Below are positions 1 through 16,812 of a stretch of 64,000 nt of DNA, one piece after another (position 1 is the stretch's first letter; each line of letters begins with the position of its first letter). Origin of the DNA: an uncultured bacterium (lineage in GTDB: Bacteria > Bacteroidota > Bacteroidia > Bacteroidales > CAIXTV01); NCBI GenBank assembly GCA_903922465.1, contig CAIXTV010000098.1, positions 10,055 through 74,054 of the forward strand, in the 5' to 3' direction. Under the pieces are notes generated by a model. The model ran no database searches. It was not told where the DNA came from and saw only the letters and a program-made list of their open reading frames with translations. The translations under genes were made by a program, and so were the position numbers.

Positions 1-2659
1 GATTAACAAAAAAATCTGTGTTTGTCTCAATTACAGAAAAGAATACATTTAATGTTCTCAAGCCCATTAAATATGTTTCTTCAACTAAATCAAAAATCAC
101 AGGATTAGAAATTTTTCCGTAATTGTTTTTAAGTATTTGACCAAGAATTTCTATTGTTTTGAATGCTAAATTAAGTTTTGCAACAATGTCTAATTCCGAA
201 ATATCCTCATTTAAGTCAGGTAAATTGTTGTAATTCTTTTCCAATTCTTCTTTTTCTGGTTCTTCTTGTTCGTCCTTTCTTTTATTAAGTTCTTCTCTAT
301 GTTCATCAATTGTTTTCGAATTGTAAACAAGCTGAGGAAGTTTATCTCCAAGTTTATTTATTGACGAAATGTCTTTATCTAATTTGCAGGGTCCAAGGTC
401 GTTAAATAATTCCTTTGCATTTGTTAATATTTCAGTTAAAAGGTATTTATCTTTAGAGTGATGCGTTAAAAACAATAAGATATTTGCAAATTCTGATTTG
501 TAAAGCCTTTTGCATAAAGCCGATATTTTTTCTCTTATTTCTTTTTGTTCAATATTCTCAGCCAAGTGCTTTGAAACAAAGAAATAATAGATGTACAGAT
601 ATTTAAACTCATAGTAACCTTCGTAATCGTCAAGAATCTTCCCCATTACAAGGTTCTTAATTATTGTATCTAATGAATCTTTAATAGTAAAATTAACTCT
701 GTAACCAGTATCAAATTTTTGAATTTCTTTTAAATCAATACATCTCACCTTGTTTTTGAAGTAATAATATGCTAATTCACTTAAATAATTATTGTAACTA
801 GTTATTTCGTCTTGACTTTTCAATGAATTACCAAATGCCTTTTGAATAAGAAATTGATAATAATGCCCGAAAGTACTAGCTGTTAAGTCTGCTGGATTTC
901 CTAATTCAATTGCTTGTAAAATTGTCAATAGAAATAAAGGATAATTTGGAACAAGGTTTTTCCCAGTAACAGTTCTTATAATCAATTCTGCTTGATGATG
1001 TTTTTTTATTCTTTCTTCATCAGACATTGTTTCTATTGAACCAAGCGTAATCCATTTATTGATTAACTTACTTTTCAAAAGATTACCAAACTCTCTTATT
1101 TCATAAGTACTAAATGAAGAAAACAAATCTTCGTTTACTGCTTCATCCGTTACAATATCTTCCAATGACATTAGTTCATTGCCTGAAATAATTAAGTTTG
1201 TGTAGTTGTTTATTAAATTTGATATTAGTTTTCCCTTATATTTTGAATTTAAAGAAGTTTTGTCAAAATCATCAATAATGATAACTAATTTTTCCATGTT
1301 TAGTTGTAAAACATCCTCCTTGTCAGATGATTCATATTGATTGAGAAAATGAGAAACAATTAATTTTTTAAAATCTTCAACACTTGTAGTTTTGATTTTA
1401 TGGCCATCTATTAAAACAGGAACAAAACCTTTTGAATGAAGATTTGCAAAAGTGATTTTTAATAAAGAAGTTTTACCAATATTTTCGGAACCACTAAGAA
1501 GTATGCGAATATCACCTTTTAATGACTTTATCAGTGCTTCTGAATCTTCTGTAATAATAGTAACTTCTCTATCAGCGTTCCCCGAAAAATCTCGTAACTC
1601 CAAACGAGGATATACAAAAATATCGGTCAATTTAACTGGTGAAACTAATGGATGTGCAAGATTTGCCCCAACATCATTTAAAGTTTGTTTAAACGCAGAT
1701 TTTAACTCATAAGGGCTTAATATTTTCGAGGCTCCTCTTTCGTACGAAAGCCATTTAAATTCAGTAGTCTCATTTGCATATTTCTCACCGGTCCATTTAT
1801 AGTTGGCTACTTGGAACTTGGTTTCATGTAAATCGAAATAAACTAAGTTAAAACCACTCAATTTAGAATCTTCGTTGTCTTGCAATATATCTCCTTCGAC
1901 ATAATAAACCAAATTATCATCTAGGTTGGAGATTAACGACTTTGTATATTCGTGTTCATGACCAGTAACATAAAAGTCTGATGTTTTTTCAATATGAAAT
2001 TTAAACTCCCTTCTGTTTTCAGGTTTTAACCAATGCAGCGGGTGATGAAAGCAAGAAATAATTATGTCGGCTTTTTCTCTGAAAAGGTTATCATCAAACA
2101 TACTTACAGGATAAATCATCTTACCGGGTTGTTCATGTAAAATAGATTGAAATGCAGTGTTGTATGTATAAAACACTAATGATTTGTCTTTTAATTGAAA
2201 TCTGTAAATATTTAGAATCTGACTGGCATAAATTGGTTCAGGATTAAGTTGATTGGCAAAGGCAAAATAATTCGTTTGAACGCTTGTTAAAGCTTCAACA
2301 ACACTTTGGTCAATGGCTTCTGATCCATTATCTTGCACAAATTTTATCAAACCCTCTCGTGCTTTATTTTCTTCAGTTAGTTTTTGGCAATCATGATTTC
2401 CAGGTAAAATGATTGTATGGATTTTTTTACCCGAATAATCTGACAGATATTTAATAATTTCATCAAAAAAAGACTTGCTTAATTCAAATTCTTCAATACT
2501 TCCTGAAAATGCAACATCGCCAGTTATCATTAAGAAAACTTCATCAACACTCTTTGTTTCATTCTGAATTGCTTCTATAAGTTTAGCTTTTTTATCAAAA
2601 ATAGAATCCTTGCCATTTTTGATATGTATGTCTGATAATTGAATAAATAGTACTTTCAT
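1..2659 (-). CDS. Large fusion protein whose C-terminus is cut by the window edge: N-terminal calcineurin-like metallophosphoesterase, central P-loop NTPase (STAND/AAA-like), then a helical C-terminal region
   Basis: Not in the supplied ORF track because it has no in-window stop. Hand translation of the minus strand from ATG 2659 stays open for all 886 codons down to position 1. It reads MKVLFIQLSDIHIKNG..ITGDVAFSG..LPGNHDCQK..CFHHPLHW..VTGHEHEY, which covers all five metallophosphoesterase motifs. Further on come LLSGSENIGKTSLLK (Walker A) and KLVIIIDDFD (Walker B). The start lies 13 nt after the hsdS stop on the same strand. Confidence 0.8.
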   Translation of the reverse strand, partial: MKVLFIQLSDIHIKNGKDSIFDKKAKLIEAIQNETKSVDEVFLMITGDVAFSGSIEEFELSKSFFDEIIKYLSDYSGKKIHTIILPGNHDCQKLTEENKAREGLIKFVQDNGSEAIDQSVVEALTSVQTNYFAFANQLNPEPIYASQILNIYRFQLKDKSLVFYTYNTAFQSILHEQPGKMIYPVSMFDDNLFREKADIIISCFHHPLHWLKPENRREFKFHIEKTSDFYVTGHEHEYTKSLISNLDDNLVYYVEGDILQDNEDSKLSGFNLVYFDLHETKFQVANYKWTGEKYANETTEFKWLSYERGASKILSPYELKSAFKQTLNDVGANLAHPLVSPVKLTDIFVYPRLELRDFSGNADREVTIITEDSEALIKSLKGDIRILLSGSENIGKTSLLKITFANLHSKGFVPVLIDGHKIKTTSVEDFKKLIVSHFLNQYESSDKEDVLQLNMEKLVIIIDDFDKTSLNSKYKGKLISNLINNYTNLIISGNELMSLEDIVTDEAVNEDLFSSFSTYEIREFGNLLKSKLINKWITLGSIETMSDEERIKKHHQAELIIRTVTGKNLVPNYPLFLLTILQAIELGNPADLTASTFGHYYQFLIQKAFGNSLKSQDEITSYNNYLSELAYYYFKNKVRCIDLKEIQKFDTGYRVNFTIKDSLDTIIKNLVMGKILDDYEGYYEFKYLYIYYFFVSKHLAENIEQKEIREKISALCKRLYKSEFANILLFLTHHSKDKYLLTEILTNAKELFNDLGPCKLDKDISSINKLGDKLPQLVYNSKTIDEHREELNKRKDEQEEPEKEELEKNYNNLPDLNEDISELDIVAKLNLAFKTIEILGQILKNNYGKISNPVIFDLVEETYLMGLRTLNVFFSVIETNTDFFVN

Positions 2660-2672
2660 ATTTTTATTTTGT

Positions 2673-3929
2673 TTAAACTTCAACTTCTTCTTTTTTCAAA
2701 GCCTCCCTCAAAGCCCCCTGCAACAACTTTTCATTTTCAATTTTACTTTGCTGTATGCTGTATTGCAATTCATCACAAAGTTTCATTAGTTGTTCTATTT
2801 TATTTACGATGCGGTCTTGTTCAGCAAAAGGTGGGAGAGGGAATAATCTTGCTTCAATAATATCTCTATTAATGGCTTCAAAAAAAAAACCTTTTGCTTT
2901 CCAATTTCTTTTCATGCAATCCAAAAAGTAAAATAATAAAACATGGTTTATTGTTTTATTCATAACTCTGATGATTGATAAACCTCTACCGATTGCATAT
3001 TTTTTGTCTGAAATATTTACATCTCCAACTGGTGCTCTTACGGAAATTAAAATGTCATTTGGTTCACTAATTTTTTTTGGTTGATTACACCATACTGAAA
3101 CACCTACAGGATACATAACTCCAAATTCAGTTTTACCTTGATAGAAAGGAATTCCATTTCCGTTTTTGTTGTATGTATTTCCTTCTGGGCTTTGTCCCAT
3201 TTGCAATTCAACAATGTCACCAAATCTGCACCACAACCAATTTGCAGGAATTGAAAAAGGAATTTCTTCTTCTGTAATCAGTGCAAGTTCTTTTCTTGCT
3301 TTTTTATCAATTGTTAGTTTGTCTTTTTCTATTTTTATTTTCTCTAACAAATCCTTTGCACTTTCATCTTTATAATTTTGTCGCGTTAATAATCCTTGCA
3401 TGGCTTCTTTTAAAATTGCATGCCGAAGTTTTATTACATCACCATCTTGTAAATTCAATTTTTCTTCCAACTCGTTTTTATATTCTGCTGCCTCATTTTC
3501 CAATGCAATTATTTCTAACTGTCTTTCCAAACTTGGAACTTCAACTTCTACATCAGCTAATTTATTCATCGGCAAACTCACATTGGCTGCACCTTTCATC
3601 AATGGCACTAATAAAGTTTCTTTGAACTGTTGTAAATACAAGTGAAGAAATTTTGCATTCAATAGTTTTTCATCATTCGGAATAACTGCACACAAAATAT
3701 TTCCTAATGCAAATTTTCCTTCTTGATAATGCACTCGTTTCATGCTTGCATGTCCGTGTCCTGTGCTGCTGATAAGCGGAACAATAACTGCCTTAGCATC
3801 AAACTGAAATTCGCTGTGGTTTCTGCGTTCATCGCTCAATGCCACCAACGGATATTTTCCTCCATCGGCTTTCATTATTCCGGTTGCCCCTTTGGTAATG
3901 CTGCAAATATCTTTTAAATGATATTTCAT
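2673..3929 (-). CDS. hsdS: Type I restriction-modification specificity subunit HsdS
   Basis: 418 aa with two variable target-recognition halves separated by conserved coiled-coil spacers (LERQLEII..., FAEQDRIVNKIEQLMKLCDEL). Its start overlaps the hsdM stop in a 4-nt ATGA overlap. Confidence 0.9.
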   Translation of the reverse strand: MKYHLKDICSITKGATGIMKADGGKYPLVALSDERRNHSEFQFDAKAVIVPLISSTGHGHASMKRVHYQEGKFALGNILCAVIPNDEKLLNAKFLHLYLQQFKETLLVPLMKGAANVSLPMNKLADVEVEVPSLERQLEIIALENEAAEYKNELEEKLNLQDGDVIKLRHAILKEAMQGLLTRQNYKDESAKDLLEKIKIEKDKLTIDKKARKELALITEEEIPFSIPANWLWCRFGDIVELQMGQSPEGNTYNKNGNGIPFYQGKTEFGVMYPVGVSVWCNQPKKISEPNDILISVRAPVGDVNISDKKYAIGRGLSIIRVMNKTINHVLLFYFLDCMKRNWKAKGFFFEAINRDIIEARLFPLPPFAEQDRIVNKIEQLMKLCDELQYSIQQSKIENEKLLQGALREALKKEEVEV

Positions 3930-5350
3930 TCTGTAGCTAATAAGGTTTTCAGTTTATTCACTATTTCGTGAATTTTGTTTTGTTCGATATCAATGCGGGA
4001 AAGAATCTCGTTTGAGGTTTCTTCGTTTTCTTCAACTACTGCATTCGGATTTTTAATATCCAAATCATAACCTCTTTCAATAATAGTATCAATAGAAACT
4101 TTCCAACTCACTTCGCTTTCAACTCTTTTCTTCCACCACTTTTTTATTGGTTCTAATTCTTCCAACTTCAACGGATTGGTTTTGGAATATGATTTTACTC
4201 CGTCCAAATATTTGTGTTGGTAATACCAAACATCTTTTGTTGGTTTTCCTTTTTCAAAAAATAATAGATTGGTTGCTACGGTTGCATAAGGTTTGAAAAC
4301 TGAATTAGGCAGGCGAATTATTGTATGCAAATTACAATCATCCAACAATTTTTGCCTTATTCTTTGCTTAACTCCATCGCCTGAAAGTGAACCATCGGGC
4401 AAAACAATTCCTGCCCTGCCTCCATGCTTCAGCAAATGAATCATCAAAATCAAAAACAAATCGGCACTTTCTTTTACCCTATAATTTGCAGGAAAATTAT
4501 TTTCGTTATTGTTTGCCACGGTTCCACCAAAAGGAGGATTGGCAATAATTACATCAACCCGGTCTTTCTCGCGATATTCAGACAACTGCTTATCCATTGC
4601 ATCACGATAGGTAATGTCGGGCAATTCGATGTCGTGCAGAATCAAATTGGTTGTTGCCAACACATAAGGTAAGGGTTTCCATTCCCAACCTTGTATGTTT
4701 TTTTGGATGGCTTTGCGTTGTTCAATATTTTTGGTTTGCTTTTTTAAATGTTCAATGGCAGAAGTTAAAAAACCTCCGGTTCCGCAAGCAGGGTCAAGAA
4801 TCCGTTCGTTTAATTGTGGATTAATAGTGTCTGTGATAAATTGAGTAATTGCTCTTGGCGTATAAAATTCACCATAGTCACCGGCACTTTGTAGTTCTTG
4901 TAATATTGTTTCGTAAATCTCACCGAACAAATGTCTTTCGGTGGCTTTGTTGAAATCAACTTCATTCAAACGGTTTACAACTTTGCGAATATTTATTCCG
5001 CTTTTCATATAGTTGTTGTTGCCTTCAAAAACTTCACGAACCATATAGGCACGAGGGTCAAGGGCTGAAAGTTCTTTGAGTGTCGGGAAAAGGTGCTGAT
5101 CGACAAAGTTCAGCAATTCTTCACCTGTCATACCTTCGTCATTGGCAGCCCAATTTCGCCACTTAAATTTTTCGGGAATAGGAGATTTGTAATTGTCATC
5201 CAACAATTCAAGTTCTTTGTCTTTGTCGTCAAATATTTTCAAGAAAAGCATCCAGCCTAATTGCTCAATGCGTTGCCCATCGCCGCTAACACCGCGGTCT
5301 TCGCGCATATCGTTGCGGATGGATTTTATTATGCCGGATAGGTTGCTCAT
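3926..5350 (-). CDS. hsdM: Type I R-M N6-adenine DNA methyltransferase HsdM
   Basis: Carries the AdoMet motif I DPACGTGGFL and catalytic motif IV IIANPPFGG. The N-terminal HsdM-N-like region reads LGWMLFLKIFDD. Confidence 0.95.
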   Translation of the reverse strand: MSNLSGIIKSIRNDMREDRGVSGDGQRIEQLGWMLFLKIFDDKDKELELLDDNYKSPIPEKFKWRNWAANDEGMTGEELLNFVDQHLFPTLKELSALDPRAYMVREVFEGNNNYMKSGINIRKVVNRLNEVDFNKATERHLFGEIYETILQELQSAGDYGEFYTPRAITQFITDTINPQLNERILDPACGTGGFLTSAIEHLKKQTKNIEQRKAIQKNIQGWEWKPLPYVLATTNLILHDIELPDITYRDAMDKQLSEYREKDRVDVIIANPPFGGTVANNNENNFPANYRVKESADLFLILMIHLLKHGGRAGIVLPDGSLSGDGVKQRIRQKLLDDCNLHTIIRLPNSVFKPYATVATNLLFFEKGKPTKDVWYYQHKYLDGVKSYSKTNPLKLEELEPIKKWWKKRVESEVSWKVSIDTIIERGYDLDIKNPNAVVEENEETSNEILSRIDIEQNKIHEIVNKLKTLLATE

Positions 5351-5414: not shown

Positions 5415-5990
5415 TCATTTTTGTCCTTGGTTTCTTTTATTAATTCTTGCTTTGGTCATTCTTTCTCTCAAGCCTCCTTCGTTGACAAAGGCTGTTTCCA
5501 ATGCTTTTATTTGGTGATTCAGAAGATAGTTAACCACTTTTATGAGTCCTATCATCGAATTAGCACAAATTTCGGGGCTTTCATTTTCTATTGCTTTTTT
5601 AAAAGTATCGTAATTGCTATTTGGTATTTTATTTAATTCTCTTAGTCTGGCAACTAAGCGATGATCTTTATCCCACAAAGGTAGTTTATTTGTTCTTAAA
5701 AAATCTTCATAATCGATTTTTAATTCTTCTAAAGATGCACGGGCAACATTTGTTAGTTTAATTTCTGTTTCTTTTGAAGTTGCAGATGCCATGCTTGCCT
5801 CGGCAATATTTTGTTTCCCACTTCGGGCAGCCTGCACCATTTGATCGATGGTGCGGTCATATTTCCCAAAGAACCTTTTAGTAAAATACACTGTGCCATC
5901 GTAAATAATTTCAGCTTTCTGGTAAGCTATCAAATTATGATAACCTCCATGTTTTGGTATAAAGCCATCTTTGTTATCTATTTCTACCAT
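5415..5990 (-). CDS. Four-helix-bundle protein (23S rRNA intervening-sequence protein-like family) embedded in the hsd operon
   Basis: 191 aa. The segment YQKAEIIYDGTVYFTKRF...QMVQAARSGKQNIAEA..ASLEEL matches my recollection of the four-helix-bundle (S23p-like) family that is often inserted in Bacteroidota Type I R-M loci. This is a family assignment from memory, not from a search. Confidence 0.65.
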   Translation of the reverse strand: MVEIDNKDGFIPKHGGYHNLIAYQKAEIIYDGTVYFTKRFFGKYDRTIDQMVQAARSGKQNIAEASMASATSKETEIKLTNVARASLEELKIDYEDFLRTNKLPLWDKDHRLVARLRELNKIPNSNYDTFKKAIENESPEICANSMIGLIKVVNYLLNHQIKALETAFVNEGGLRERMTKARINKRNQGQK

Positions 5991-6102: not shown

Positions 6103-8568
6103 TTATGCTGTCTTATAAAGTTCCACTTCTAATTCTTTTACTGCTTGCAAATATTTTTCTTTGCTTCCAAATTCACTTACGATTTCAATTGGAGAACCAA
6201 ACTCGTTAAGTGGCTCCACCTTCAATACTTCCATGCTTTCTAAATTTTCGATTCCCTCATCGGCATATTTATCGAGCAAAGCCTCTAAAACTTTTCTGCT
6301 TTGTTCACCATATTTTGTAAAGTAATTCCGCTTCTTCACATTATTGGCTCTTTCTTTTCTTGTAAGTGGTGGCTGATCGTAAGCTATGTGACAAATCAGA
6401 TCAAAGAGGTCGCAATTATTTTCAACGGCTTCCATTAATGCCTCAACTAAAACACCCTGTTGTCGCAATTCTTCAATAATAGCTTCTTTCCTTTCTGTAG
6501 TGTTCCATTTGTTAAGAAAATCGTCGAGAGAGGAATATTCTCCTTTGATGATTTCTTTAGTATGATCTTTTAAACTTGTAGTAATTGGTCTGCCCTGTTG
6601 GTCGAAATACAATTCACGGGAAACAAGAATGGAAACATCTATACCATTTACATAAACTTTTTTTCTTGGTTCTTTTGCAATTCCTCTTCCATCGATTTGC
6701 CTGTCACCAGGATAACGGATTAAAGGTTTTTCAAATTTTATTTCATCTCCTGTTTCTGGGTCCAAAACAGGAAGTGTATTTTCTTCTTCTTCATTTATCA
6801 ACATTGATAAATCTTCATCTTGAGAAACCGGCTTAACTCGAATGGGGTCGCCATCAAAATCTTTGTCAGCAAATAAATCAGTTGCATTTCTGAAATCAAG
6901 AATGGTGAAATAAAGTTTATTAAATTCTTCATTTATGCGTGTTCCTCTACCAATAATTTGTTTGAACTTGGTCATTGATTTTATTATGCTATCAAGCACA
7001 ATCACTTTACAAGTTTGTGCATCAACACCAGTTGTCATCAATTCGGAAGTTGTGGCGATTACAGGATACTTTTCCTCGGGATTAATAAAATTATCCAATT
7101 CTTTTTTACCTTCATCATTGTCGCCTGTAACCTGCATTACATATTTGTGATTTACAGAAACCAAATCAAAATTTTCATTAGCAATACAACTTCTCATGCC
7201 TTCTGCATGCTCAATATCGCAACAAAAAACAATTGACTTTGAAAAACGATCAGTTCCTTTTAAAAACTCAGTGATTTTTTTTGCAACTAATATTCTTCGC
7301 TCTTCCACTACTATGCCACCACTCCTGTCAAAATCTGTGCGGTTATAAATTCTATCTTCAACTTCATTTCCTTCTTTGTCTAAAAAGCCAATTGAAGGTC
7401 GCCAGCCTTCTAAGTCAATGTTTAGCCCGACTCTGACAACGCGATACGGAGCTAAAAAACCATCATCAATTCCTTTTTTTAATGAATAAGTATAAACCGG
7501 GTTTCCAAAATATTCTGAGTTGCTTGTTACTTCATCTTCTTTGGGTGTGGCTGTTAAACCAATTTGTGTTGCACTTTTGAAATATTCTAAAATCTTCCGC
7601 CAGGCGCTGTCTTCTTTGGAGCTTCCTCTGTGGCATTCATCAACTATAATTAAATCAAAGAAACCCGGACTGAAATCTTTGTAAGCATCTTCAATACCTT
7701 CATCACTATTTGTCAAGCCTTGATAAATACCAAGAAAAATTTCATAGGCTTTATCACTACTGTCAATCCCTCTTTTTTTACTGGATACTAATTTATCTTT
7801 TCCATCAACATCAATAACTTTCTTTTTGATGATGGTCATTTTATCTTTAAAATATTTAAAGTCACCTCTGCGTGTCTGATCAATTAAATTATTTCTGTCC
7901 GCTAAAAATAGGATTCTTTTTTTTACTCCTGCTTTCCACAGCCGATGAATGATTTGAAATGCAACATATGTTTTCCCAGTACCTGTTGCCATTACCAATA
8001 AAATTCTGTTTTGTCCGCTAGCGATTGCTTCAACACTTCTATTTATTGCAATTTGCTGATAGTATCTCGGTTTCCTTCCACTGCCATCAAAATAATAATC
8101 TTGAGAAGCAATCTTTTCAGCTAAAGGGGTAGTTATGCCTTTATATTTTTTATATTTTTCCCATAATTGTTCAGGTGTAGGGAAATGGTCATTGTTAATT
8201 TCCGTTTCAATATTTTCATCAGTAGCTGTGCGGTCATGAAACAGAAAACCGTCACCATTGCTGCTAAATACGCATGGGATATCAAGAATTAGAGCATAGT
8301 CGAGTGCTTGTTGAATGCCTGATCTAACAGAATGATTATTGTCCTTGGCTTCAATAATGGCAATAGGAATGTTGGGTTTATAATATAAAATATAGTCTGC
8401 TCGCTTTGCAGTGCCTCTTGCAGTCAATTTTCCCCGGACATAGATTTTACCATCCGTAAAATAAACTTCTTCTAAAAGCTGAGTGAGCTTATCCCACCCT
8501 GCTTTCTCAATTGCAGGAGTGATAAACTTGGTGCATATATCTCTTTCCGATAAGCTCTTTTTGTTCAT
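6103..8568 (-). CDS. hsdR: Type I restriction endonuclease subunit HsdR (helicase/nuclease)
   Basis: 821 aa. The N-terminal PD-(D/E)xK-like nuclease region reads ADYILY..IAIIEAKD. The SF2 helicase motif I is VMATGTGKTY and motif II is IIVDECHRGS. Confidence 0.95.
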   Translation of the reverse strand: MNKKSLSERDICTKFITPAIEKAGWDKLTQLLEEVYFTDGKIYVRGKLTARGTAKRADYILYYKPNIPIAIIEAKDNNHSVRSGIQQALDYALILDIPCVFSSNGDGFLFHDRTATDENIETEINNDHFPTPEQLWEKYKKYKGITTPLAEKIASQDYYFDGSGRKPRYYQQIAINRSVEAIASGQNRILLVMATGTGKTYVAFQIIHRLWKAGVKKRILFLADRNNLIDQTRRGDFKYFKDKMTIIKKKVIDVDGKDKLVSSKKRGIDSSDKAYEIFLGIYQGLTNSDEGIEDAYKDFSPGFFDLIIVDECHRGSSKEDSAWRKILEYFKSATQIGLTATPKEDEVTSNSEYFGNPVYTYSLKKGIDDGFLAPYRVVRVGLNIDLEGWRPSIGFLDKEGNEVEDRIYNRTDFDRSGGIVVEERRILVAKKITEFLKGTDRFSKSIVFCCDIEHAEGMRSCIANENFDLVSVNHKYVMQVTGDNDEGKKELDNFINPEEKYPVIATTSELMTTGVDAQTCKVIVLDSIIKSMTKFKQIIGRGTRINEEFNKLYFTILDFRNATDLFADKDFDGDPIRVKPVSQDEDLSMLINEEEENTLPVLDPETGDEIKFEKPLIRYPGDRQIDGRGIAKEPRKKVYVNGIDVSILVSRELYFDQQGRPITTSLKDHTKEIIKGEYSSLDDFLNKWNTTERKEAIIEELRQQGVLVEALMEAVENNCDLFDLICHIAYDQPPLTRKERANNVKKRNYFTKYGEQSRKVLEALLDKYADEGIENLESMEVLKVEPLNEFGSPIEIVSEFGSKEKYLQAVKELEVELYKTA

Positions 8569-8860: not shown

Positions 8861-9799
8861 ATGAATAAAATAGTAGATGCACAGGTTTCAAGTATATTTA
8901 GAACTCACGCCTCCATAAACGCTTTTAGCGGTTCATGGGCAGGGATGCAACCCATTATTAAACATGAAATACAACTCGGAGTAATAGAAAACAAGATCAT
9001 ACAGGAATTTGTAAATGCCGGATTGACAAGCAAAGGGGTAAGTGAGGATAAAAAAGCTAAATTGGGTAATATGATTACAAAATCCCTGATTATTGCCGCC
9101 TCGGTGTATGATTATGGTAGTGATAAAGAAAATAATGAGTTGATGGAAAAAGTTGATATTACAGCTTCTTCTTTTGCTCATTTATCAGAATTGGAGAAGG
9201 CAGCTCTTGCAAATGAAATTGTTGCCGCTGCAACAGATAGCATTGCTGATATGGGTACTGATTATATTATTGCCCAGTCTGATATTGATGAATTGAAAAC
9301 TTTTGTAAGCAATTATAAAATGTATATTCCCAAGCCCAAAGCTGTTATTACGGATGCTGCTGTTGCCCGTAAAAACATTAAGAAATTAGCGAAAGAAGGA
9401 TTATCTGTTTTAAAGAAAGTGGATAAATTGATGAATAATTTCCTGAATACTGATTTTCATAAGAGTTATTTCAGTGCACGAAAAATTATTTATGCTTCTA
9501 CTGCAAATAAAATATATACCTTAGAAGTTGCATGTCATATTATCAGGAAGATTTGTATTCACTTGTTCAAAATTGGCGAAACCGTTACTATTGAAAATGA
9601 TGGTACAGTTAGCTTGCAGGTAGGTTTGGCGTTTAATGCTAAGGCAACAGTGTTGGTTTGGTACACAGTGGCTGCCGGGGAAACGGTTACGATTAAACCT
9701 GATTTGATGGGGAGCCTTGACTTTAAATATGTGATAGTAAAGAATGCGGATTTATATGTGAAAGGGCATTTGGTGTTTACTATAAATAAATCTAAATAA
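8861..9799 (+). CDS. Hypothetical protein, paralogue of the 45783-46745 product (shared ~93-aa C-terminal domain)
   Basis: 312-aa ORF. The C-terminal 94 aa (9515-9796) align without gaps to the C-terminus of the 45783..46745 protein. My hand count gives 53 identical positions out of about 92. Shared stretches include KICIH.FK.GETVT, VLVWYT, TVTI.P.L.G.L and YV.VKN. There is no signal peptide. Confidence 0.7.
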   Translation: MNKIVDAQVSSIFRTHASINAFSGSWAGMQPIIKHEIQLGVIENKIIQEFVNAGLTSKGVSEDKKAKLGNMITKSLIIAASVYDYGSDKENNELMEKVDITASSFAHLSELEKAALANEIVAAATDSIADMGTDYIIAQSDIDELKTFVSNYKMYIPKPKAVITDAAVARKNIKKLAKEGLSVLKKVDKLMNNFLNTDFHKSYFSARKIIYASTANKIYTLEVACHIIRKICIHLFKIGETVTIENDGTVSLQVGLAFNAKATVLVWYTVAAGETVTIKPDLMGSLDFKYVIVKNADLYVKGHLVFTINKSK

Positions 9800-10687: not shown

Positions 10688-10747
10688 TACATTAATCCTA
10701 ATATTCAGGAGGCAGCTGTTTCAATTGAGTCAAGGTGAAAACAGGTC
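10688..10747. repeat. Direct repeat copy B (the functional 3' end of the flxA-like gene)
   Basis: See copy A. This copy is contiguous with the intact ORF 10698..11537. Confidence 0.85.
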
Positions 10748-11537
10748 CATCTTTACAAACGAACACCTTACCTACATTACATCTTCCACATTTACCGAAT
10801 CCGCATTTCATACGGTTTTCAAGGGTGGTGAAAACATTGTCGTCGGTAAAGCCAAGTTTTTCCAATACAGGGAAGGTGAATTTAATCATGATAGGAGGAC
10901 CGCAAACGATGGCAATGGTGTTTGCGCTCGAAGGGGCTACTTCGGATAGAACGGTAGGCACAAAGCCTACTTTGCCTTTCCAGTCGGGAGTTTCGCCACC
11001 CGGGTCAACGGTAGTAACGAGTTTTACATCGGGACGGTCTTCCCATTCTTTGAGTTCGTGTTTATAAACCAAATCGGCAACCGAACGGGCACCATAAACG
11101 ATGGTAATGTCTTTAAAGTTCTCGCGCAAATCGAGGCAATTCCAGATGACGCTGCGCATAGGAGGCAATGCAATACCTCCGGCAATGAATAATAAGTTCT
11201 TTCCTTTCCACTCGTCAATCGGGAAAATATTACCATAGGGACCTCTGAAACCGATGATGTCGCCTTCGTCGAGATTGGCAAGGGCTTTGGTCACACGACC
11301 CGCCTGACGGAAGGTGCATTCGATATATCCTTTGCGGGTAGGTGCAGAGGCAACACAAAAGGTAACTTCGCCTTCACCATAAATTGAATATTCGCCAAAC
11401 TGACCTGTTCTGAAAGAGAAGTTTTCAGCATCCTGTTCATTCATAAATTTGAGTCGAAAAGTCTTTACAAGAGGGGCTTCCTCCGTAATCTTTTCAATCT
11501 TCATTTTATAAGGGGCATATATATTACTCTGTTCCAT
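10698..11537 (-). CDS. FAD/NAD(P)H-binding oxidoreductase with a C-terminal [2Fe-2S] motif (FlxA / sulfhydrogenase gamma / AsrB-like)
   Basis: 279 aa with a ferredoxin-NADP-reductase-like fold (FRTGQF, LLFIAGGIALPPM). The C-terminal cysteine cluster reads CGFGKCGRCNVGKVFVCKDG. Confidence 0.8.
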   Translation of the reverse strand: MEQSNIYAPYKMKIEKITEEAPLVKTFRLKFMNEQDAENFSFRTGQFGEYSIYGEGEVTFCVASAPTRKGYIECTFRQAGRVTKALANLDEGDIIGFRGPYGNIFPIDEWKGKNLLFIAGGIALPPMRSVIWNCLDLRENFKDITIVYGARSVADLVYKHELKEWEDRPDVKLVTTVDPGGETPDWKGKVGFVPTVLSEVAPSSANTIAIVCGPPIMIKFTFPVLEKLGFTDDNVFTTLENRMKCGFGKCGRCNVGKVFVCKDGPVFTLTQLKQLPPEY

Positions 11538-11570
11538 TGTATATATTTTTTTTCAGCTTAATCTATTATT

Positions 11571-12587
11571 TTAACCTTTTGCAATTTGGGTGAGGTGTTC
11601 GGCAATGTTCATATCCGAAGGGCATGCTCTCGAACATCTTCCACAACCCACACAACCGAATTGTTTTTGTTGCTCGGGTTGATAAGAGAACTTATGATAA
11701 ATCCTCTGACGCCATCTTTGTGCTTGCTTTTCGCGTGGATTATGACCTGATGTATGCAGCGTAAACAGCTTAAATCCACATGAATCCCAACAACGGTGAC
11801 GAACGCCATCTTTTCCTTTTGTCTCATCCTGTATGTCGAAACATCCGCAGGCAGGGCAAACGAAAGCACAAGCACCACATCCTACACAACGCATAGCCTG
11901 TGTGTCCCAAATATCCGATTCGAAAAGGGTCTTCAGTTTTTCGTTGATGACTTCTTCGGTAAATTGTTGTTCGATTTTAGCAACAAGAGGGGTTTTGTCA
12001 ACAACTGCAGAATCTTTAAACAAAGCAGCATTCGCATCTAAAATGCTTTTGCCTTTTTCTGTAATGATTTCAGCATAATATTCGTTTGGTGACATTTCGG
12101 TAAGCAAAATATCGCTGCCAGAAGTATTTCCGGGGCCTCCATTTACTGAAGTACAGAAGCAAAAATCATCGGCTTTCTTACAACTAATGCTGATGATGGT
12201 AAGTTTATCCATACGAGCTTTGAAGATTTCATCCACATTGTCGGTAGTGAAAATAGCATCTAGCGGAATGAATCCAGCAGCATCGCAGGGCCGAGTTCCA
12301 AATGCAATCACTTCGGGGAATGCAGTGATATCTACGTTTTTAACAATAACATCGTCAAAGGTCTTCTCGAAATTCATTAGCTTCTCAACCTTTGGGAAAA
12401 CAAGTGATTTAGCAGATTGCTTGGTAGCAATGCAATCGAAATCCATTTCCTGCAGATTAGCAACTTTTTCGAATTCGGTGATTCCTTTTTTATTTACGGG
12501 GGCATAAACTTCTTTTCCTGAAGCATTCAGTTTTTCAACCAAAACGGTAAGAGAAGATTTATCGAGTATCTTATTAATTATTTCCAT
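11571..12587 (-). CDS. 4Fe-4S cluster protein (FlxB / sulfhydrogenase beta / AsrA-like)
   Basis: 338 aa with the cysteine motifs CVGCGACAFVCPACGC and CVGCGRCSRACP. Confidence 0.75.
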   Translation of the reverse strand: MEIINKILDKSSLTVLVEKLNASGKEVYAPVNKKGITEFEKVANLQEMDFDCIATKQSAKSLVFPKVEKLMNFEKTFDDVIVKNVDITAFPEVIAFGTRPCDAAGFIPLDAIFTTDNVDEIFKARMDKLTIISISCKKADDFCFCTSVNGGPGNTSGSDILLTEMSPNEYYAEIITEKGKSILDANAALFKDSAVVDKTPLVAKIEQQFTEEVINEKLKTLFESDIWDTQAMRCVGCGACAFVCPACGCFDIQDETKGKDGVRHRCWDSCGFKLFTLHTSGHNPREKQAQRWRQRIYHKFSYQPEQQKQFGCVGCGRCSRACPSDMNIAEHLTQIAKG

Positions 12588-12590
12588 GAT

Positions 12591-13394
12591 TTATTTAATA
12601 AAATTTTCTTTGTCAACAACAGTATAAGCAGAAAGAGCAGAGGTGAAAACTGAATTCAAACCTGCTTCTGAGTCAAATTCATCCAATACGAAATCGGAAA
12701 GCATATAGGATAGGATATTTAAAGGAATGTCAACAGGACACGACCTGTTGCATTCGCCACAATTGATACATCTTCCGGCAAGGTGCATGGCGCGCATCAT
12801 ATGCCATTCAACATTGCCATATTTATGAGAAGCAACAGGTATCCATTGAGGATTGTTGGTCTCAACATTACATTTGCCACAATAACACATCGGGCAAGAT
12901 GCACGGCACGCATAACATTTAATGCAAGGACTAAAGGCTTCCACCCAATAATCGAATCTTTCTTCGAGCGACATGGCTTGAATCTTTTCAATCAAAGCTT
13001 TATCTTCAGGTTTTAAACCTTTAGGCTGTGTTTTTGAAAACTCTTCGGCAGCTTTAAAGTCGAGTATTCCGGCACATTTACCTTCATGCGTAATTCCTAT
13101 GATGTGGATTTTCTCTTCAGTAATCTGATTTTCTGCTGACAGTTGTAATATGCTTCTTACTACATTAGGGGTAGCGGTAATGGCAACTCCCTTAGCATGC
13201 TGACAAGTATCTTTTTTCAGATATAAAGCAATATTATGAATACATGCTTCATTATAAATAAGCTTGTCAATATCCTCGGCTTTTGTAAAGAATGCCGGTC
13301 TGACTTTATTAGCCGTCCCTTTTTCAAACCCTAGCACCACCTGAACTTTATTTTCAGCAAGCAATTCTCTTGCTATTTTTTTAATTTCTTCCAT
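12591..13394 (-). CDS. Iron-sulfur protein (FlxC-like)
   Basis: 267 aa with CIKCYACRASCPMCYCGKC and CINCGECNRSCPV. It sits between the FlxB-like and MvhD-like genes. Confidence 0.7.
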   Translation of the reverse strand: MEEIKKIARELLAENKVQVVLGFEKGTANKVRPAFFTKAEDIDKLIYNEACIHNIALYLKKDTCQHAKGVAITATPNVVRSILQLSAENQITEEKIHIIGITHEGKCAGILDFKAAEEFSKTQPKGLKPEDKALIEKIQAMSLEERFDYWVEAFSPCIKCYACRASCPMCYCGKCNVETNNPQWIPVASHKYGNVEWHMMRAMHLAGRCINCGECNRSCPVDIPLNILSYMLSDFVLDEFDSEAGLNSVFTSALSAYTVVDKENFIK

Positions 13395-13397
13395 GAT

Positions 13398-13835
13398 CTA
13401 TTCTAAAATATCTTGAGTGGATAATTTATGATAACTATCGTAAGGGCCTAGTTTTATGATTTCTTCGTTAGTAGTATTCACAATATCAGCCCATTTGGAA
13501 CCTTCGGCAGCTGAAACCCAGGAGAAAACAATACGACGGGTATCAATTCCCATGAAGTCGCATAGTTTTTTAAATACAATCCATCGTCTACGGGCATAAA
13601 AATTACCCGAAGTGTAATGGCAATCGTTAGGGTGACACCCAGAAACAATAATTCCATCGGCTCCACTTGCAAAAGCTTTGGTTAATAACATATAGTCAAT
13701 TCTTCCTGTGCAAGGGAAACGAACGATTCTGACATTTGGTGAATATTTTATTCTGCTTGTTCCTGTTAAATCAGCCCCTGCATAAGTGCACCAGTTACAA
13801 ACAAAAGCAACAATTTTAGGTTGAAATTCTGACAT
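13398..13835 (-). CDS. MvhD/FlxD-type hydrogenase iron-sulfur subunit-like protein
   Basis: 145 aa. FVCNWCTYAGADLTG...FPCTGRID...SGCHPNDCHY is the typical MvhD/FlpD signature. Confidence 0.85.
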   Translation of the reverse strand: MSEFQPKIVAFVCNWCTYAGADLTGTSRIKYSPNVRIVRFPCTGRIDYMLLTKAFASGADGIIVSGCHPNDCHYTSGNFYARRRWIVFKKLCDFMGIDTRRIVFSWVSAAEGSKWADIVNTTNEEIIKLGPYDSYHKLSTQDILE

Positions 13836-13883
13836 CGTATATTTAGTTTAAATTCTAAAGTCTATAGTTTTAAAACAATAATT

Positions 13884-15884
13884 TTAACTATTTAATAATG
13901 CATCCACTTCCGAATACATTTGTTGATTAGTATAGCCATCGATATCGATAGACTTGGATTTGCAAATAGCAACACAGGTTCCACAACCCTGGCATAAGCC
14001 TGGATTAATGTAAGCAAGTGACTTTATTAAGTTTCCTGCTCTATCTTTAATGTCTTCTTTTTCGATAGCATTATATGGGCAAACCGGCTGACATAAGAAA
14101 CAACCCGTGCAGGATGAATAATCAGGAGCCGCAATTCTATCGACAAATGCGATAAGCGGTTCGCGGGTGAGTTCACTACTTGAGAACAAACAGGAGATTT
14201 TACCTGCTACACCAGAAGCAGCAGCAACCGATTCAGGAATGTCTTTTGGAGACTGACAAGCGCCAGCCAAATAAATACCAGCAGTATTGGTTTCAACAGG
14301 TTTTAGCTTGGGATGTGCTTCTGAAAAGAATCGATGTTGATCGTAAGAAACATGAAGTTTTTGAGCTAATTCTTCAGCACCCTGATTTGCAACACCCGCT
14401 GTTGCCAATACTACCATGTCGGCTTCGATTTCAACGGTTTCATGATTCATTAAGGTATCTGTCCCGATAACAATCAATTTGCCATCACGCTCATAAATGG
14501 AGGAAACTCTGCCCCTAATATATTGCGCATTGTCTTCTTCAATTGCACGACGGGTAAATTCATCATAATTCTTACCAGCAGCCCTGATATCCATATAAAA
14601 GATATAGGCTGTGCCATCATGAACTTTATGTTTATAGAGGATAGCATGTTTAGCTGTGTACATACAGCAAATTTTAGAACAATATTCAATGCCTTTAGCC
14701 GGGTCGCGTGAGCCTGCACAAGCCACAAATACAATTTTCTTAGGTTCTGCACCATCAGAAGGTCTGCGAATTGCTCCTAATGTAGGACCTGATGCTGATG
14801 CCATTCTTTCGAATTGCAAGCCATCGATTATATCTTTATGTTTCCCATATCCATATTCAGGGAAGAAGTCGGTTTTCTTAACATCAAAGCCGGTGCAAAT
14901 TGAAATAGCACCTACTGCAACTTCAATAATTTCATCTTCCTGATCGAAACGTATGGCTTTAGGTTGGCAGAATTTTTCGCAAATCTTGCATTTTCCATTC
15001 TTATAATAAGTACAGTTTAAGCGGTCAATCACAGGGACATTAGGAACTGCTTGTGGAAAAGGAACATAAATGGCAGGTCTGTTTCCCATGCCCAATTCAA
15101 ATTCATTTGGAATTTTCTTTTGAGGGCATTTGGTTGTACACATCCCGCAACCATTGCAAAGAGTTTCATCAATACTCTTAGCCTTCTTTCTGATTTTCAC
15201 ATTGAAATTCCCAACAAAACCTTCAACGCTTTCAACCTCAGCATAAGTATATAAGGTGATATTTGGATTTTGAGCCACCTCAACCATGCGAGGGGTAAGT
15301 ATGCATTGTGAGCAGTCGAGCGTTGGGAATGTTTCACTTAATTGCGACATATGTCCACCAATTGAAGGCTCACGTTCAACCATAACAACTTTATGACCAG
15401 CATTGGCAATATCCAAGGCTGCCTGAATACCGGCAACACCTCCACCAATAACCAAAGCGGTTTTGGTAACAGGAACTTTAATTGACATTAAAGCATTATT
15501 CCTTTTTACCTTTTCAACCATCATTCGGACAACATCTATTGCTTTTTGGTCTGTACGATCTCCTTTTTCATGTACCCATGAACAATGTTCACGAATATTA
15601 GCCATTTCGCATAAATAAGGATTTAATCCTGCTTCTGCGCAAGCTCTTCTGAAAGTAGGCTCATGCATACGAGGAGAGCATGCTGAAACAACAATCCCCG
15701 TAAGTTTGTGCTCTTTAATCGCATTCACCACTAGGCTTTGCCCAGGGTCGGAACACATATATTTATAATCTACACTATATGCAACTCCGGGAAATTTAGC
15801 AGCAACTTCCGATACCTTAGGGCAATCAACAGTTGCGCTGATATTTTCTCCGCAATGACAAATAAAAACTCCAATACGTGCCAT
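13884..15884 (-). CDS. hdrA: Heterodisulfide reductase subunit A-like flavoprotein
   Basis: 666 aa. The FAD motif is VIGGGVAGIQAALDIANAGHKVVMVE. There are several CxxCxxCxxxCP ferredoxin motifs and an N-terminal Cys-rich region (FICHCGENI). Confidence 0.9.
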   Translation of the reverse strand: MARIGVFICHCGENISATVDCPKVSEVAAKFPGVAYSVDYKYMCSDPGQSLVVNAIKEHKLTGIVVSACSPRMHEPTFRRACAEAGLNPYLCEMANIREHCSWVHEKGDRTDQKAIDVVRMMVEKVKRNNALMSIKVPVTKTALVIGGGVAGIQAALDIANAGHKVVMVEREPSIGGHMSQLSETFPTLDCSQCILTPRMVEVAQNPNITLYTYAEVESVEGFVGNFNVKIRKKAKSIDETLCNGCGMCTTKCPQKKIPNEFELGMGNRPAIYVPFPQAVPNVPVIDRLNCTYYKNGKCKICEKFCQPKAIRFDQEDEIIEVAVGAISICTGFDVKKTDFFPEYGYGKHKDIIDGLQFERMASASGPTLGAIRRPSDGAEPKKIVFVACAGSRDPAKGIEYCSKICCMYTAKHAILYKHKVHDGTAYIFYMDIRAAGKNYDEFTRRAIEEDNAQYIRGRVSSIYERDGKLIVIGTDTLMNHETVEIEADMVVLATAGVANQGAEELAQKLHVSYDQHRFFSEAHPKLKPVETNTAGIYLAGACQSPKDIPESVAAASGVAGKISCLFSSSELTREPLIAFVDRIAAPDYSSCTGCFLCQPVCPYNAIEKEDIKDRAGNLIKSLAYINPGLCQGCGTCVAICKSKSIDIDGYTNQQMYSEVDALLNS

Positions 15885-16792
15885 TATATTTCCTCCATTA
15901 TTTGAGTGTTTTCAACTACTACTTCTTTTTTAACATAGGGCTTGAAATTATCAAGTTTTACAGGGACAAAGTGTCTATTTAAACCTAACTTCTTCCTATC
16001 GATGCCTAAGGCAAGACCAATCGCCTGAGTAATATAAATTACTGGAGTGTCAATTTTTTTACCATTATATTTATCCATTGCTGGACGTCTCATGTCGAGA
16101 TTTGAATGACACATGGGGCAAGCAACAACTAATGCCTCAGCTCCTCTATGAGATGCATCTTCAATGATTTTGCCTGACAATCTGCCGACAGCTTCGGTAA
16201 ATGATACCGAAAAACCGGCTCCGCAACACTCTGTCTTGAAGGCCCAGTCTATAGAGTCGGCACCCAATTTCTTCATCACTACATCCATGGTCTGAGGATC
16301 TTCAGTGCGGTCGAAATTCAGTATCTTATTAGGACGAACCAACAGACAACCATAATAACAGGCTACTTTCTTGTTAATTTCAAACTTCATATTATCTTCT
16401 AATTTGTCGATAATATACTCTTCAATAAATTGAATGACATTTAAAATCCTTAAAGTTCCTTTATATTCTTTGCCAATGATTTCATTGACTTTTTTGTGCA
16501 TAGCATTATCGTGAAGCAACTCGTGTTGAGTTACAGTGAATCTGCTATAACAAGCGGCACAAGGAACCACCAATTCTGTCAAGCCTGCTTCTTCTGCTAA
16601 TGCCAGATTACGGGCAGGAAGTGATAGAGATAGTTCTTTATCCAGATTATGAGCAGCGGTAGCGCCACAACAATTCCAATCGGGAATCGAAACCAATTCA
16701 ATTCCCAATTTTTCGGCAACAGCCTGTACAGATTCGTTATATTCTCTGGAAGCTCCTTCCAGAGAACATCCGGGATAAAATCCAAGTTTCAT
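15884..16792 (-). CDS. hdrB: Heterodisulfide reductase subunit B-like (two CCG domains)
   Basis: 302 aa with CCG motifs WNCCGATAA and TECCGAGF, plus CPMCH. Its start overlaps the hdrA stop by 1 nt. Confidence 0.9.
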   Translation of the reverse strand: MKLGFYPGCSLEGASREYNESVQAVAEKLGIELVSIPDWNCCGATAAHNLDKELSLSLPARNLALAEEAGLTELVVPCAACYSRFTVTQHELLHDNAMHKKVNEIIGKEYKGTLRILNVIQFIEEYIIDKLEDNMKFEINKKVACYYGCLLVRPNKILNFDRTEDPQTMDVVMKKLGADSIDWAFKTECCGAGFSVSFTEAVGRLSGKIIEDASHRGAEALVVACPMCHSNLDMRRPAMDKYNGKKIDTPVIYITQAIGLALGIDRKKLGLNRHFVPVKLDNFKPYVKKEVVVENTQIMEEI

Positions 16793-16812
16793 TTCTTTCC
16801 TTATTTAAGGTT

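Follow-up and report, generated by a model that had tools for sequence, protein, structure and literature searches.

In both PrrC and RloC, an N-terminal ATPase of the ABC type is joined to a C-terminal anticodon nuclease, and the Yyd proteins may form a conflict system. To our knowledge, no metallophosphoesterase effector had been validated in defense before DS-8 and DS-9. DS-8 is a single-protein anti-phage defense that was validated in E. coli (DefensePredictor, Science 2026, PMC13092281). In the first screen, E. coli DS-8 cut the plating of Bas1, Bas19, Candy, Bas11, Bas26, Bas25, and SECphi17 by 2–5.6 logs (PMC13092281). The substitutions D52A, N84A, and K375A each abolished protection (PMC13092281, Table S11). 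The family has been published, validated by experiment, and included in curated NCBIfam and PADLOC models. When the literature was searched for metallophosphatase plus NACHT, nSTAND4 plus a calcineurin-like domain, PDC-S60, and YydB/YydD, the DefensePredictor paper was the only one that bore on the topic. Here, we describe a gene of the DS-8 family found directly behind a Type I restriction-modification (R-M) set in a 64,000-nucleotide stretch of Bacteroidota DNA, which is referred to as the window.

The open reading frame and its family

The gene had been predicted from the sequence as an unlisted minus-strand frame running from an ATG at position 2659 to the edge of the window. Translation bore this out, as the 886 codons from 2659 to 1 contain zero stops. 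The remaining five frames of this stretch hold 55–103 stops each, and the probability of 886 stop-free codons arising by chance at 29% GC is approximately 1e-35. The rest of the frame was recovered from P0001, an identical full-length protein. The complete protein is 1032 aa long, and 146 aa lie beyond the window. The gene at 1–2659 (minus strand), therefore, comprises codons 1–886 of 1032.

This frame very probably encodes a Bacteroidota orthologue of the DS-8 protein, which on its own makes up an anti-phage system of the bacterial NLR/STAND kind and is independent of R-M. On NF053861 (DS8_antiphage, an NCBIfam equivalog model with a cutoff of 790 bits), full-length P0001 scored 1095.9 bits across profile positions 1–994 of 994, and the part inside the window scored 958.5 bits on its own (profile positions 1–863). 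The cutoff discriminates, since it excluded two relatives: the variant with a TIR domain scored 559 bits, and a distant variant from Bacillus scored 190 bits. The PADLOC scan matched the PDC-S60 models PDLC05050 (E 4e-141 over aa 314–1031) and PDLC05051 (E 2e-29 over aa 1–946). The original prediction had found no named system for this protein. That part did not hold, as both DS-8, at a score above the NF053861 cutoff, and PDC-S60 fit.

A BLASTP comparison with E. coli DS-8 (WP_032203427.1) spanned its first 399 aa, the portion given in the supplement of the paper, and returned 29% identity (E 2e-38). In this alignment, the three residues essential in E. coli DS-8 are conserved, with D52 corresponding to D48, N84 to N88, and K375 to K396. 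Among 30 homologues, D48 and N88 were invariant, and K396 was at least 90% conserved. Protection by the gene alone has been shown for the E. coli orthologue and is predicted for the Bacteroidota protein.

The family is distributed patchily across phyla and is also carried on plasmids. A tblastn search of 50,697 phage records gave zero matches. One Bacillus plasmid match (H11) was considered as a YydB-type split system and turned out to be a single-chain variant of about 1050 aa that scores under the DS-8 cutoff. The discovery value of the gene is small, since the family has been published, validated, and modeled, and a current annotation pipeline would label it "anti-phage protein". A true defense gene nevertheless proved recoverable from raw sequence by a first-stage reading.

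Domain architecture and the phosphoesterase effector

The full-length AlphaFold model (pLDDT 83, pTM 0.72) resolved three parts: a metallophosphoesterase at the N-terminus, an NTPase resembling that of NLRs, and a C-terminus made of helices. The calcineurin-like metallophosphoesterase effector domain occupies aa 1–300 (1760–2659, minus strand), on the evidence of Pfam, the ligand residues, the domain model, and fold matches. Pfam PF00149 (Metallophos) matched aa 5–238 (E 5e-13). All five phosphoesterase motifs that had been predicted are present: SDIH at residue 9, GDVAFSG at 47, GNHD at 87, FHH at 204, and GHEH at 233. They supply the ligand motifs D10/H12, D48, N88-H89-D90, H205-H206, and H234/H236. 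The metal ligands D10, H12, D48, N88, H89, H205, H206, H234, and H236 were invariant in 17 family members; in the 30-sequence alignment, D10 and H12 were at least 90% conserved and the other metal ligands were invariant.

A linker between effector and NTPase follows at aa 301–380 (1520–1759, minus strand), where both model confidence and conservation are lower. The chassis held in common with TIR-bearing relatives starts at about aa 319, within this linker, where the BLASTP alignment with the Vibrio TIR protein begins. The P-loop NTPase, by fold a nucleotide-binding domain of the NACHT/STAND type, spans aa 381–540 (1040–1519, minus strand). Its predicted Walker motifs are both in place: GSENIGKTS at 390 (Walker A, G390–S398, with K396) and VIIIDDFD at 459 (Walker B, V459–D466). 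STAND helical and winged-helix domains were assigned to aa 541–780 (320–1039, minus strand) from the secondary structure of the model, the NLR alignments, and a Pfam nSTAND_NTPase4 match at aa 642–695, which reached 22 bits compared to a cutoff of 27. The Pfam matches to AAA, ATPase_2, and nSTAND3 were all sub-threshold, and none of the NACHT/STAND models in Pfam reached its threshold on this protein. In the precomputed Pfam table of the homologues, nSTAND_NTPase4 (PF24406) appears in most and NACHT (PF05729) in a few. Foldseek matched the protein to NLRC4, NOD2, NLRP3/7/9/14, Avs4, and Avs5 (E 1e-10 to 1e-5), with NLR alignments of about 590 columns.

An acidic linker and the start of an all-helical C-terminal domain fill aa 781–886 (2–319, minus strand), as placed by model helices and conservation, and the domain runs on to aa 1032 outside the window. 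The helices from H784 to H1031 form this domain, in agreement with the prediction that the helical stretch would continue beyond the edge. It is the presumed sensor. A hypervariable C-terminal sensor was considered and rejected, since mean pairwise identity is about 35% in every domain and the C-terminal one, at 37%, is as conserved as the others.

The pairing of a calcineurin-like phosphoesterase with a P-loop ATPase is generic and could, taken by itself, describe a housekeeping DNA-repair or SbcCD-like protein with no role in defense. We consider this exceedingly improbable. By fold, the NTPase belongs with STAND/NACHT proteins, not with ABC/Rad50, and a long coiled coil of the Rad50 type was sought in the 1032-aa model and was absent, including from the C-terminus, which is a helical bundle. 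The patchy spread across phyla, plasmid carriage, low GC, and defense-gene neighbors also argue against a housekeeping role, as does the validation of the orthologue in defense (PMC13092281).

The effector domain modeled alone (pLDDT 87) was most similar in fold to YydB (PDB 9a6c; E 8e-20, TMq 0.74, rmsd 3.9 Å, 22% identity). Purple acid phosphatase, SMPDL3B, Rv0805, GpdQ, and Lmo2642 followed at E 1e-9 to 1e-8, and the match to Mre11 was weaker (E 4e-7 to 1e-6). Rv0805 is a cyclic-nucleotide phosphodiesterase. A sequence-profile search of the PDB had a best E-value of 1.5e-4 and missed YydB; only the fold comparison was informative. A different effector was found on a relative encoded by a Vibrio plasmid. 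This protein has a TIR domain (Pfam TIR_2), and its alignment with aa 319–1022 shows 30% identity (E 9e-93). Since TIR replaces the phosphoesterase on the same NTPase and C-terminal chassis, the phosphoesterase is a swappable effector. TIR domains in defense systems are commonly annotated as NAD-consuming or nucleotide-signal-making effectors. The predicted anti-phage layout of effector, NTPase, and helical region, of the STAND kind, gains support from this swap and from the E. coli mutagenesis (PMC13092281).

The TIR swap, the nearness of YydB, and the ranking of small-molecule phosphodiesterases above Mre11 all bear on the question of the DS-8 substrate. It is possible, although doubtful, that the phosphoesterase is a nuclease that degrades DNA or RNA like Mre11/SbcD. 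Many STAND/Avs effectors are nucleases, Mre11/SbcD chains occur among the PDB sequence-profile matches (E 0.003–0.1) as well as among the fold matches, and the closest structural relative, YydB, is uncharacterized and so leaves the substrate unsettled. However, the small-molecule enzymes named above outrank Mre11, by only 2–3 orders of E-value and with TM-scores that are all about 0.5. The model also lacks an Mre11 capping or DNA-binding domain, a Rad50-like partner is absent, and the paralogous chassis bears TIR. A nucleotide-type small molecule would, therefore, be the most likely substrate and nucleic acid a less likely one. The authors of the DS-8 paper likewise favor a nucleotide substrate (PMC13092281).

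The protein could work in four steps. The helical C-terminal region would sense a phage cue. The NACHT-like NTPase would then bind or hydrolyze NTP and undergo a conformational change or oligomerization, which would turn on the N-terminal binuclear metallophosphoesterase. Hydrolysis of the phosphoester substrate would stop phage production. This scheme is based on the E. coli orthologue, for which one gene suffices and defense depends on the phosphoesterase ligands as well as on the lysine of Walker A, and on the orthology, residue conservation, three-part fold, and TIR in the place of the phosphoesterase found in the present analysis. C-terminal sensing, oligomerization, the class of substrate, and an abortive-infection outcome are the elements that we infer.

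The Type I R-M neighbors and the homologue loci

The Type I R-M set upstream of the DS-8 gene is complete, with hsdR, hsdM, and hsdS all full length, and every gene of the block is on the minus strand. hsdR (6103–8568) encodes an EcoAI-family restriction subunit (NF046051, 1121 bits compared to a cutoff of 550; PADLOC REase_I). Between it and hsdM lies a four-helix-bundle gene with a TIGR04258 suffix domain (5415–5990; TIGR04258 and TIGR02436). hsdM (3926–5350) encodes an N6-adenine methyltransferase (N6_Mtase and HsdM_N; PADLOC MTase_I, E 2e-191) and overlaps hsdS by 4 nt. hsdS (2673–3929) encodes a specificity subunit with two target-recognition domains, seen as two stretches of Pfam Methylase_S and as PADLOC Specificity_I. 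An A-rich junction of 13 nt (2660–2672, minus strand) separates the end of hsdS from the DS-8 start codon. The predicted 13-nt gap and shared direction with hsdR, the four-helix-bundle gene, hsdM, and hsdS are, thus, correct.

A terminator-like hairpin was sought in the 13-nt junction and none was found. A sigma-70 promoter scan gave counts at the level of shuffled sequence, and its consensus is unsuited to Bacteroidota. Operon status is, therefore, something that we still infer, and it is plausible from the sequence that the DS-8 gene is co-transcribed with the hsd operon as its fifth gene. The DS-8 gene is more AT-rich than its surroundings, with a GC content of 28–31% compared to 34–37% for hsd and 36–43% for the flank. 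A search for flanking direct or inverted repeats that would mark a mobile cassette returned only short repeats at chance level.

The original prediction further suggested that the protein might be coupled to the R-M system. In one form of this idea, DS-8 is a guard that is set off once phage anti-restriction proteins have blocked HsdRMS, in the way that PrrC works in the EcoprrI locus. The 13-nt junction without a terminator fits such a guard, and so does L003, where the hsdR-hsdM-hsdS-DS-8 block is syntenic and homology ends at its borders. In the wider survey, Type I R-M (at least two kinds of subunit within 10 kb) was found at 5 of 65 genome loci, in three phyla and with varied hsd families and gene orders; Type I components were nearby in about 4–5 of 47 metagenome loci. 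Type I R-M beside the DS-8 family is commoner than chance, and all hsd genes adjoining DS-8 are on its strand. The E. coli DS-8 tests were also carried out in MG1655, a host that carries EcoKI, so that Type I R-M was present in them.

Against a guard, Type I R-M is near only about 8–10% of homologue loci, on either side, and about 90% of the loci are without it. The partner hsd genes come from different Type I families, and no adaptor gene is shared. The order of the genes varies as well. An arrangement with hsd always upstream and DS-8 last was considered and rejected: it describes all five genome loci, but hsd lies downstream in the metagenome loci L088, L092, and L101. A solitary copy occurs in L005, at 87% aa identity, where hsd is absent and the gene stands alone amid housekeeping genes, beside genes for proline racemase and D-amino-acid oxidase. 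Nucleotide homology with L005 starts just 21 nt ahead of the ATG and ends at the stop codon; the leader of about 20 nt is kept even in this hsd-less locus. Other neighbors of DS-8 are typical defense-island company (Type IV REase, HmaC, PD-T4-6 kinase, mad genes, AbiE, and a Pycsar effector), and none is a constant partner. The predicted association with defense islands, thus, stands. The GC of the DS-8 gene differs from that of hsd, and DS-8 was published as a single-gene system (PMC13092281).

A guard role is, in our view, quite unlikely, and a functional dependency on R-M is not supported, given the approximately 90% of loci without Type I R-M, the solitary L005, and the single-gene E. coli DS-8. 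In all likelihood, the DS-8 gene here is an independently acquired cassette 13 nt behind hsdS that is probably transcribed with the Type I R-M operon, and R-M and DS-8 form two independent layers of defense, not a coupled machine. The locus documents a Bacteroidota DS-8 orthologue in a compact two-system islet, made up of Type I R-M and DS-8, with housekeeping genes at its borders. There is a very slim chance that those DS-8 copies that sit on hsd operons may be co-regulated with the Type I enzyme or triggered by its failure, as a PrrC-like anti-restriction sensor with a nucleotide-hydrolyzing suicide or arrest effector.

Comparison with known systems

The present gene shares its genomic placement with PrrC and RloC, which are likewise second-line defense genes lying co-directionally within a Type I R-M operon or close behind one. 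However, the protein is unrelated, being a phosphoesterase with a STAND NTPase; it matched no PrrC or RloC model in the PADLOC scan, and its association with R-M is facultative (about 8–10% of loci). SbcCD/Mre11-Rad50 differs in that the present protein is without a long coiled coil and its NTPase resembles NLRs rather than Rad50.

The order of effector, STAND NTPase, and C-terminal domain is shared with bNACHT and Avs1–5, as are swappable N-terminal effectors, and the fold matches to NLRC4, NOD2, NLRP3, Avs4, and EfAvs5 extend the likeness to Avs and NLR proteins. No Avs or bNACHT HMM in PADLOC was matched at E ≤ 0.01, with only PDC-S60 returned. In contrast to Avs, the C-terminal domain is neither TPR-like nor hypervariable; many Avs sensors are more variable.

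YydB of B. subtilis (PDB 9a6c, an integrative YydD-YydB model) is the nearest phosphoesterase fold by ten orders of magnitude, but it is a separate polypeptide with the partner YydD, whereas the present phosphoesterase is fused in one chain. DS-9A (NCBIfam NF053862), the phosphoesterase of the two-gene DS-9 system, is also validated in defense, and its metallophosphoesterase motifs are akin to those at aa 5–104 of the present protein (E 5e-10). The protein scored 39 bits compared to a cutoff of 420 on that model, and DS-9 has no STAND module and requires a HAD-phosphatase partner.

Both models of PDC-S60 (PADLOC-DB v2, 2023) matched the protein, but this phage-defense candidate was derived computationally and groups together phosphoesterase-bearing and TIR-bearing proteins of the same chassis. 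The literature search turned up no paper that uses the name PDC-S60. The closest system is E. coli DS-8, which likewise has a metallophosphoesterase, a NACHT-type NTPase, and a helical C-terminus on one chain of comparable length (1014 aa, compared to 1032 aa here). The present protein differs in its Bacteroidota host, in its approximately 29% identity over the comparable part, and in being attached to a Type I hsd operon at its 3' end.

The window gene is DS-8

The reverse strand was open for 886 codons from position 2659 to position 1, as originally predicted. The remaining five frames of 1-2659 contained 55-103 stops each, and an open frame of this length has a chance probability of ~1e-35 at 29% GC. 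The complete sequence was obtained through P0001, a database protein identical to the window part; it is 1032 aa long, which leaves 146 residues off-window. The predicted phosphoesterase motifs were located at residues 9 (SDIH), 47 (GDVAFSG), 87 (GNHD), 204 (FHH), and 233 (GHEH), with Walker A at residue 390 and Walker B at residue 459.

No named system had been recognized in the original prediction; however, the gene is already known as DS-8. The NCBIfam equivalog NF053861 "DS8_antiphage", which has a cutoff of 790 bits, scored 958.5 bits with the window part and 1095.9 bits with the full-length protein (profile 1-994 of 994). PADLOC-DB (2023) already included the family, as candidate PDC-S60. 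The name comes from DefensePredictor (Science 2026, PMC13092281), where one gene from Escherichia coli (WP_032203427.1, 1014 aa, "metallophosphatase + NACHT") gave phage protection that was lost in the phosphoesterase ligand mutants D52A and N84A and the NTPase mutant K375A. Plating of Bas1, Bas19, Candy, Bas11, Bas26, Bas25, and SECphi17 was lowered by 2 to 5.6 log in the primary screen (PMC13092281). In BLASTP limited to the first 399 aa of the E. coli protein, taken from the supplement of PMC13092281, P0001 was 29% identical (E 2e-38), and its D48, N88, and K396 aligned with D52, N84, and K375. D48 and N88 were invariant and K396 at least 90% conserved in a 30-sequence family alignment.

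Genomic setting and the relation to restriction-modification

Family scans placed an EcoAI-family hsdR (6103-8568), a four-helix-bundle gene with a TIGR04258 "suffix" domain (5415-5990), hsdM (3926-5350), and hsdS (2673-3929) on the minus strand, the same strand as DS-8, and the hsdS stop lay 13 nt from the DS-8 ATG, both as predicted. Other contigs with P0001 had the same 13-nt spacing (471 minus 457). Since the gap is short, the leader is A-rich and conserved, and a terminator scan of the hsdS/DS-8 junction saw no terminator-like hairpin, DS-8 is likely co-transcribed with hsd in the window.

Beyond hsdR on the right lie genes for Fe-S oxidoreductases, EPSP synthase, and type-IX-secretion cargo. 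The gene table of the longest other P0001 contig (13 kb) lists a 118-aa ORF, an amino-acid permease, and more such cargo beyond DS-8. The closest genome matches were two MAGs, one from Bacteroidota and one from Flavobacterium; together with the cargo and housekeeping flanks, these indicate that the host is a Bacteroidota bacterium. The hsd genes and DS-8 form a compact islet flanked by housekeeping genes. Its right-hand edge looks like ordinary metabolism, a minus-strand Fe-S and flavin oxidoreductase cluster at 10698-17418 (heterodisulfide-reductase-like CCG domains, Fer4 proteins, and a DHOD-B-type electron-transfer subunit). A 312-aa plus-strand ORF divergent from hsdR (8861-9799), outside the block shared with locus L003, had no Pfam or PADLOC family beyond a weak FliB-like lysine-methylase match (E 0.003). 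Left of the window, just past the DS-8 stop, a 21-nt tandem repeat array with 13 registered copies (L001:3716-4183) lies within a 118-aa minus-strand ORF, whose predicted product is a heptad-repeat protein with no Pfam match.

Restriction-linked genes, PrrC and RloC among them, are known to accumulate in Type I loci. Homologue neighbourhoods were surveyed in 80 genome and 80 metagenome loci, and varied defence genes were found beside DS-8. No neighbour was constant, and flank gaps, strands, and sizes differed widely. Among the two nearest large genes on either side, PADLOC identified Type I/II/III/IV R-M parts, mad genes, AbiE, AbiL, a PD-T4-6-like kinase, HmaC, and pAgo-associated fragments; one plasmid copy had an Eco57I-like methylase on one side and a Pycsar effector on the other. 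Type I R-M (at least two subunit kinds within 10 kb) was present at 5 of the 65 genome loci with sufficient flank (L003, L012, L014, L015, L030) and at 4-5 of 47 metagenome loci, roughly 10%. The five genome loci span Bacteroidota, Bacillota, and Alphaproteobacteria, with differing hsd families and gene orders; hsd was upstream and co-directional in all five. A rule that hsd always lies upstream is broken by the metagenome loci L088, L092, and L101, where it is downstream, and every associated hsd gene in both samples shared the DS-8 strand. In two Acidobacteriota MAGs (L055:6986-9985 and L066:6990-9983), the homologue starts 15-17 nt downstream of a class II (B12-dependent) ribonucleotide reductase gene on the same strand; the tightly packed partner here belongs to nucleotide metabolism rather than to defence.

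Two close relatives were compared with the window. L003 (DS-8 88% identical) has the whole hsdR-hsdM-hsdS-DS-8 block, and nucleotide homology stops at the block borders. L005 (87% aa identity) lacks hsd altogether; its homology runs from 21 nt before the ATG to the stop codon, and it is flanked by genes for proline racemase and a D-amino-acid oxidase and by an unknown 206-aa ORF. This pair, the nearest informative comparison, is decisive in favour of autonomy. The GC content of DS-8 is 28-31%, compared to 34-37% for hsd and 36-43% for flanking genes. Taken together, the L003/L005 comparison, the AT-richness, and the single-gene activity in E. coli mean that DS-8 is an autonomous cassette, often landing in or beside Type I loci. 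The E. coli validation host carries EcoKI, which leaves room for a regulatory or guard-type link between DS-8 and Type I R-M, a link we consider very improbable. The functional guess was largely right, with a defence effector preceding an NTPase; the proposed R-M coupling is unsupported past co-location and probable co-transcription.

Within the shared block, HsdS (2673-3929; L003:8688-9986) was 32% identical, HsdM 72%, and HsdR 78%, and hsdS aligned at the nucleotide level over its last ~190 nt only; the target-recognition domains have been exchanged, as is typical. Because unrelated DNA (L003:6272-7233) fills the hsdR/hsdM slot in syntenic L003, the four-helix-bundle slot is a second variable insertion point of the same operon.

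Fold, effector exchange, and proposed mechanism

An AlphaFold2 model of the full-length protein from the 30-sequence alignment (mean pLDDT 83, pTM 0.72) comprised an alpha/beta-sandwich metallophosphoesterase (MPE; aa 1-300), a P-loop domain (aa ~380-540), helical and winged-helix domains up to aa ~780, and an acidic linker followed by an all-helical C-terminal domain to aa 1032. The model has no long coiled coil, so the C-terminus is not of the SbcC/Rad50 type that the original prediction had raised. Sequence-only searching gave no significant PDB relative. By Foldseek against the PDB, the central region matched NLRC4, NOD2, NLRP3/7/9/14, a STAND-TPR protein, EfAvs5, and Avs4 (E 1e-10 to 1e-5). 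Mean pairwise identity was ~35% in every domain; the C-terminal domain, which may be the sensor, was no more variable than the others. The MPE modelled alone (mfa922d396b55, window 1715-2659, minus; pLDDT 87, pTM 0.89) matched Bacillus subtilis YydB best by ten orders of magnitude (9a6c_B, E 8e-20, TMq 0.74, 22% identity). Purple acid phosphatases, SMPDL3B, the cyclic-nucleotide phosphodiesterase Rv0805, GpdQ, and Lmo2642 followed (E 1e-9 to 1e-8), and Mre11 scored 4e-7 to 1e-6.

In tblastn against plasmids, five full-length homologues were found, and TIR-domain proteins from Vibrio, Streptococcus, and Lactococcus (H9, H10) matched aa ~319-1022 only. The Vibrio protein (L083:5500-8121, Vibrio parahaemolyticus plasmid NZ_CP034287.1) has an N-terminal Pfam TIR_2 followed by nSTAND_NTPase4, matches PDC-S60, and scores 559 bits on NF053861, under the cutoff. 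It is 30% identical to the window protein (E 9e-93) across the entire NTPase and C-terminal chassis (aa 319-1022), a similarity equal to that of MPE-bearing homologues in other phyla. The TIR-bearing proteins are a TIR-effector sister of DS-8 inside PDC-S60; no experimental report on them was found in the literature. The phosphoesterase is thus a swappable effector, and this exchange supports the predicted order of effector, NTPase, and putative sensor.

In the best-supported model, DS-8 would perceive a phage cue through a putative sensing domain, the NACHT-like module would undergo an NTP-dependent switch or possibly oligomerize, the binuclear MPE would be switched on, and hydrolysis of a presumed phosphoester substrate would block phage propagation. 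Orthology, conserved residues, fold, and effector swap are established in the window protein; in the E. coli orthologue, the MPE ligands and Walker A lysine are required and the single gene is sufficient (PMC13092281). A nucleic-acid substrate seems unlikely, since the structural ranking favours small-molecule enzymes over Mre11, the paralogous chassis carries TIR as its effector, and both the Mre11 accessory domain and a Rad50 partner are absent. For these reasons, we lean modestly toward a nucleotide-type small molecule as the substrate.

PDB 9a6c is an integrative model of the YydD-YydB complex, and the DS-8 MPE is closest to its YydB chain; YydB and its partners may therefore form a split conflict system with the same effector type. 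Modular effector exchange is typical of NLR/Avs-type defence proteins, and the same exchange, of MPE for TIR, is seen on the DS-8 chassis.
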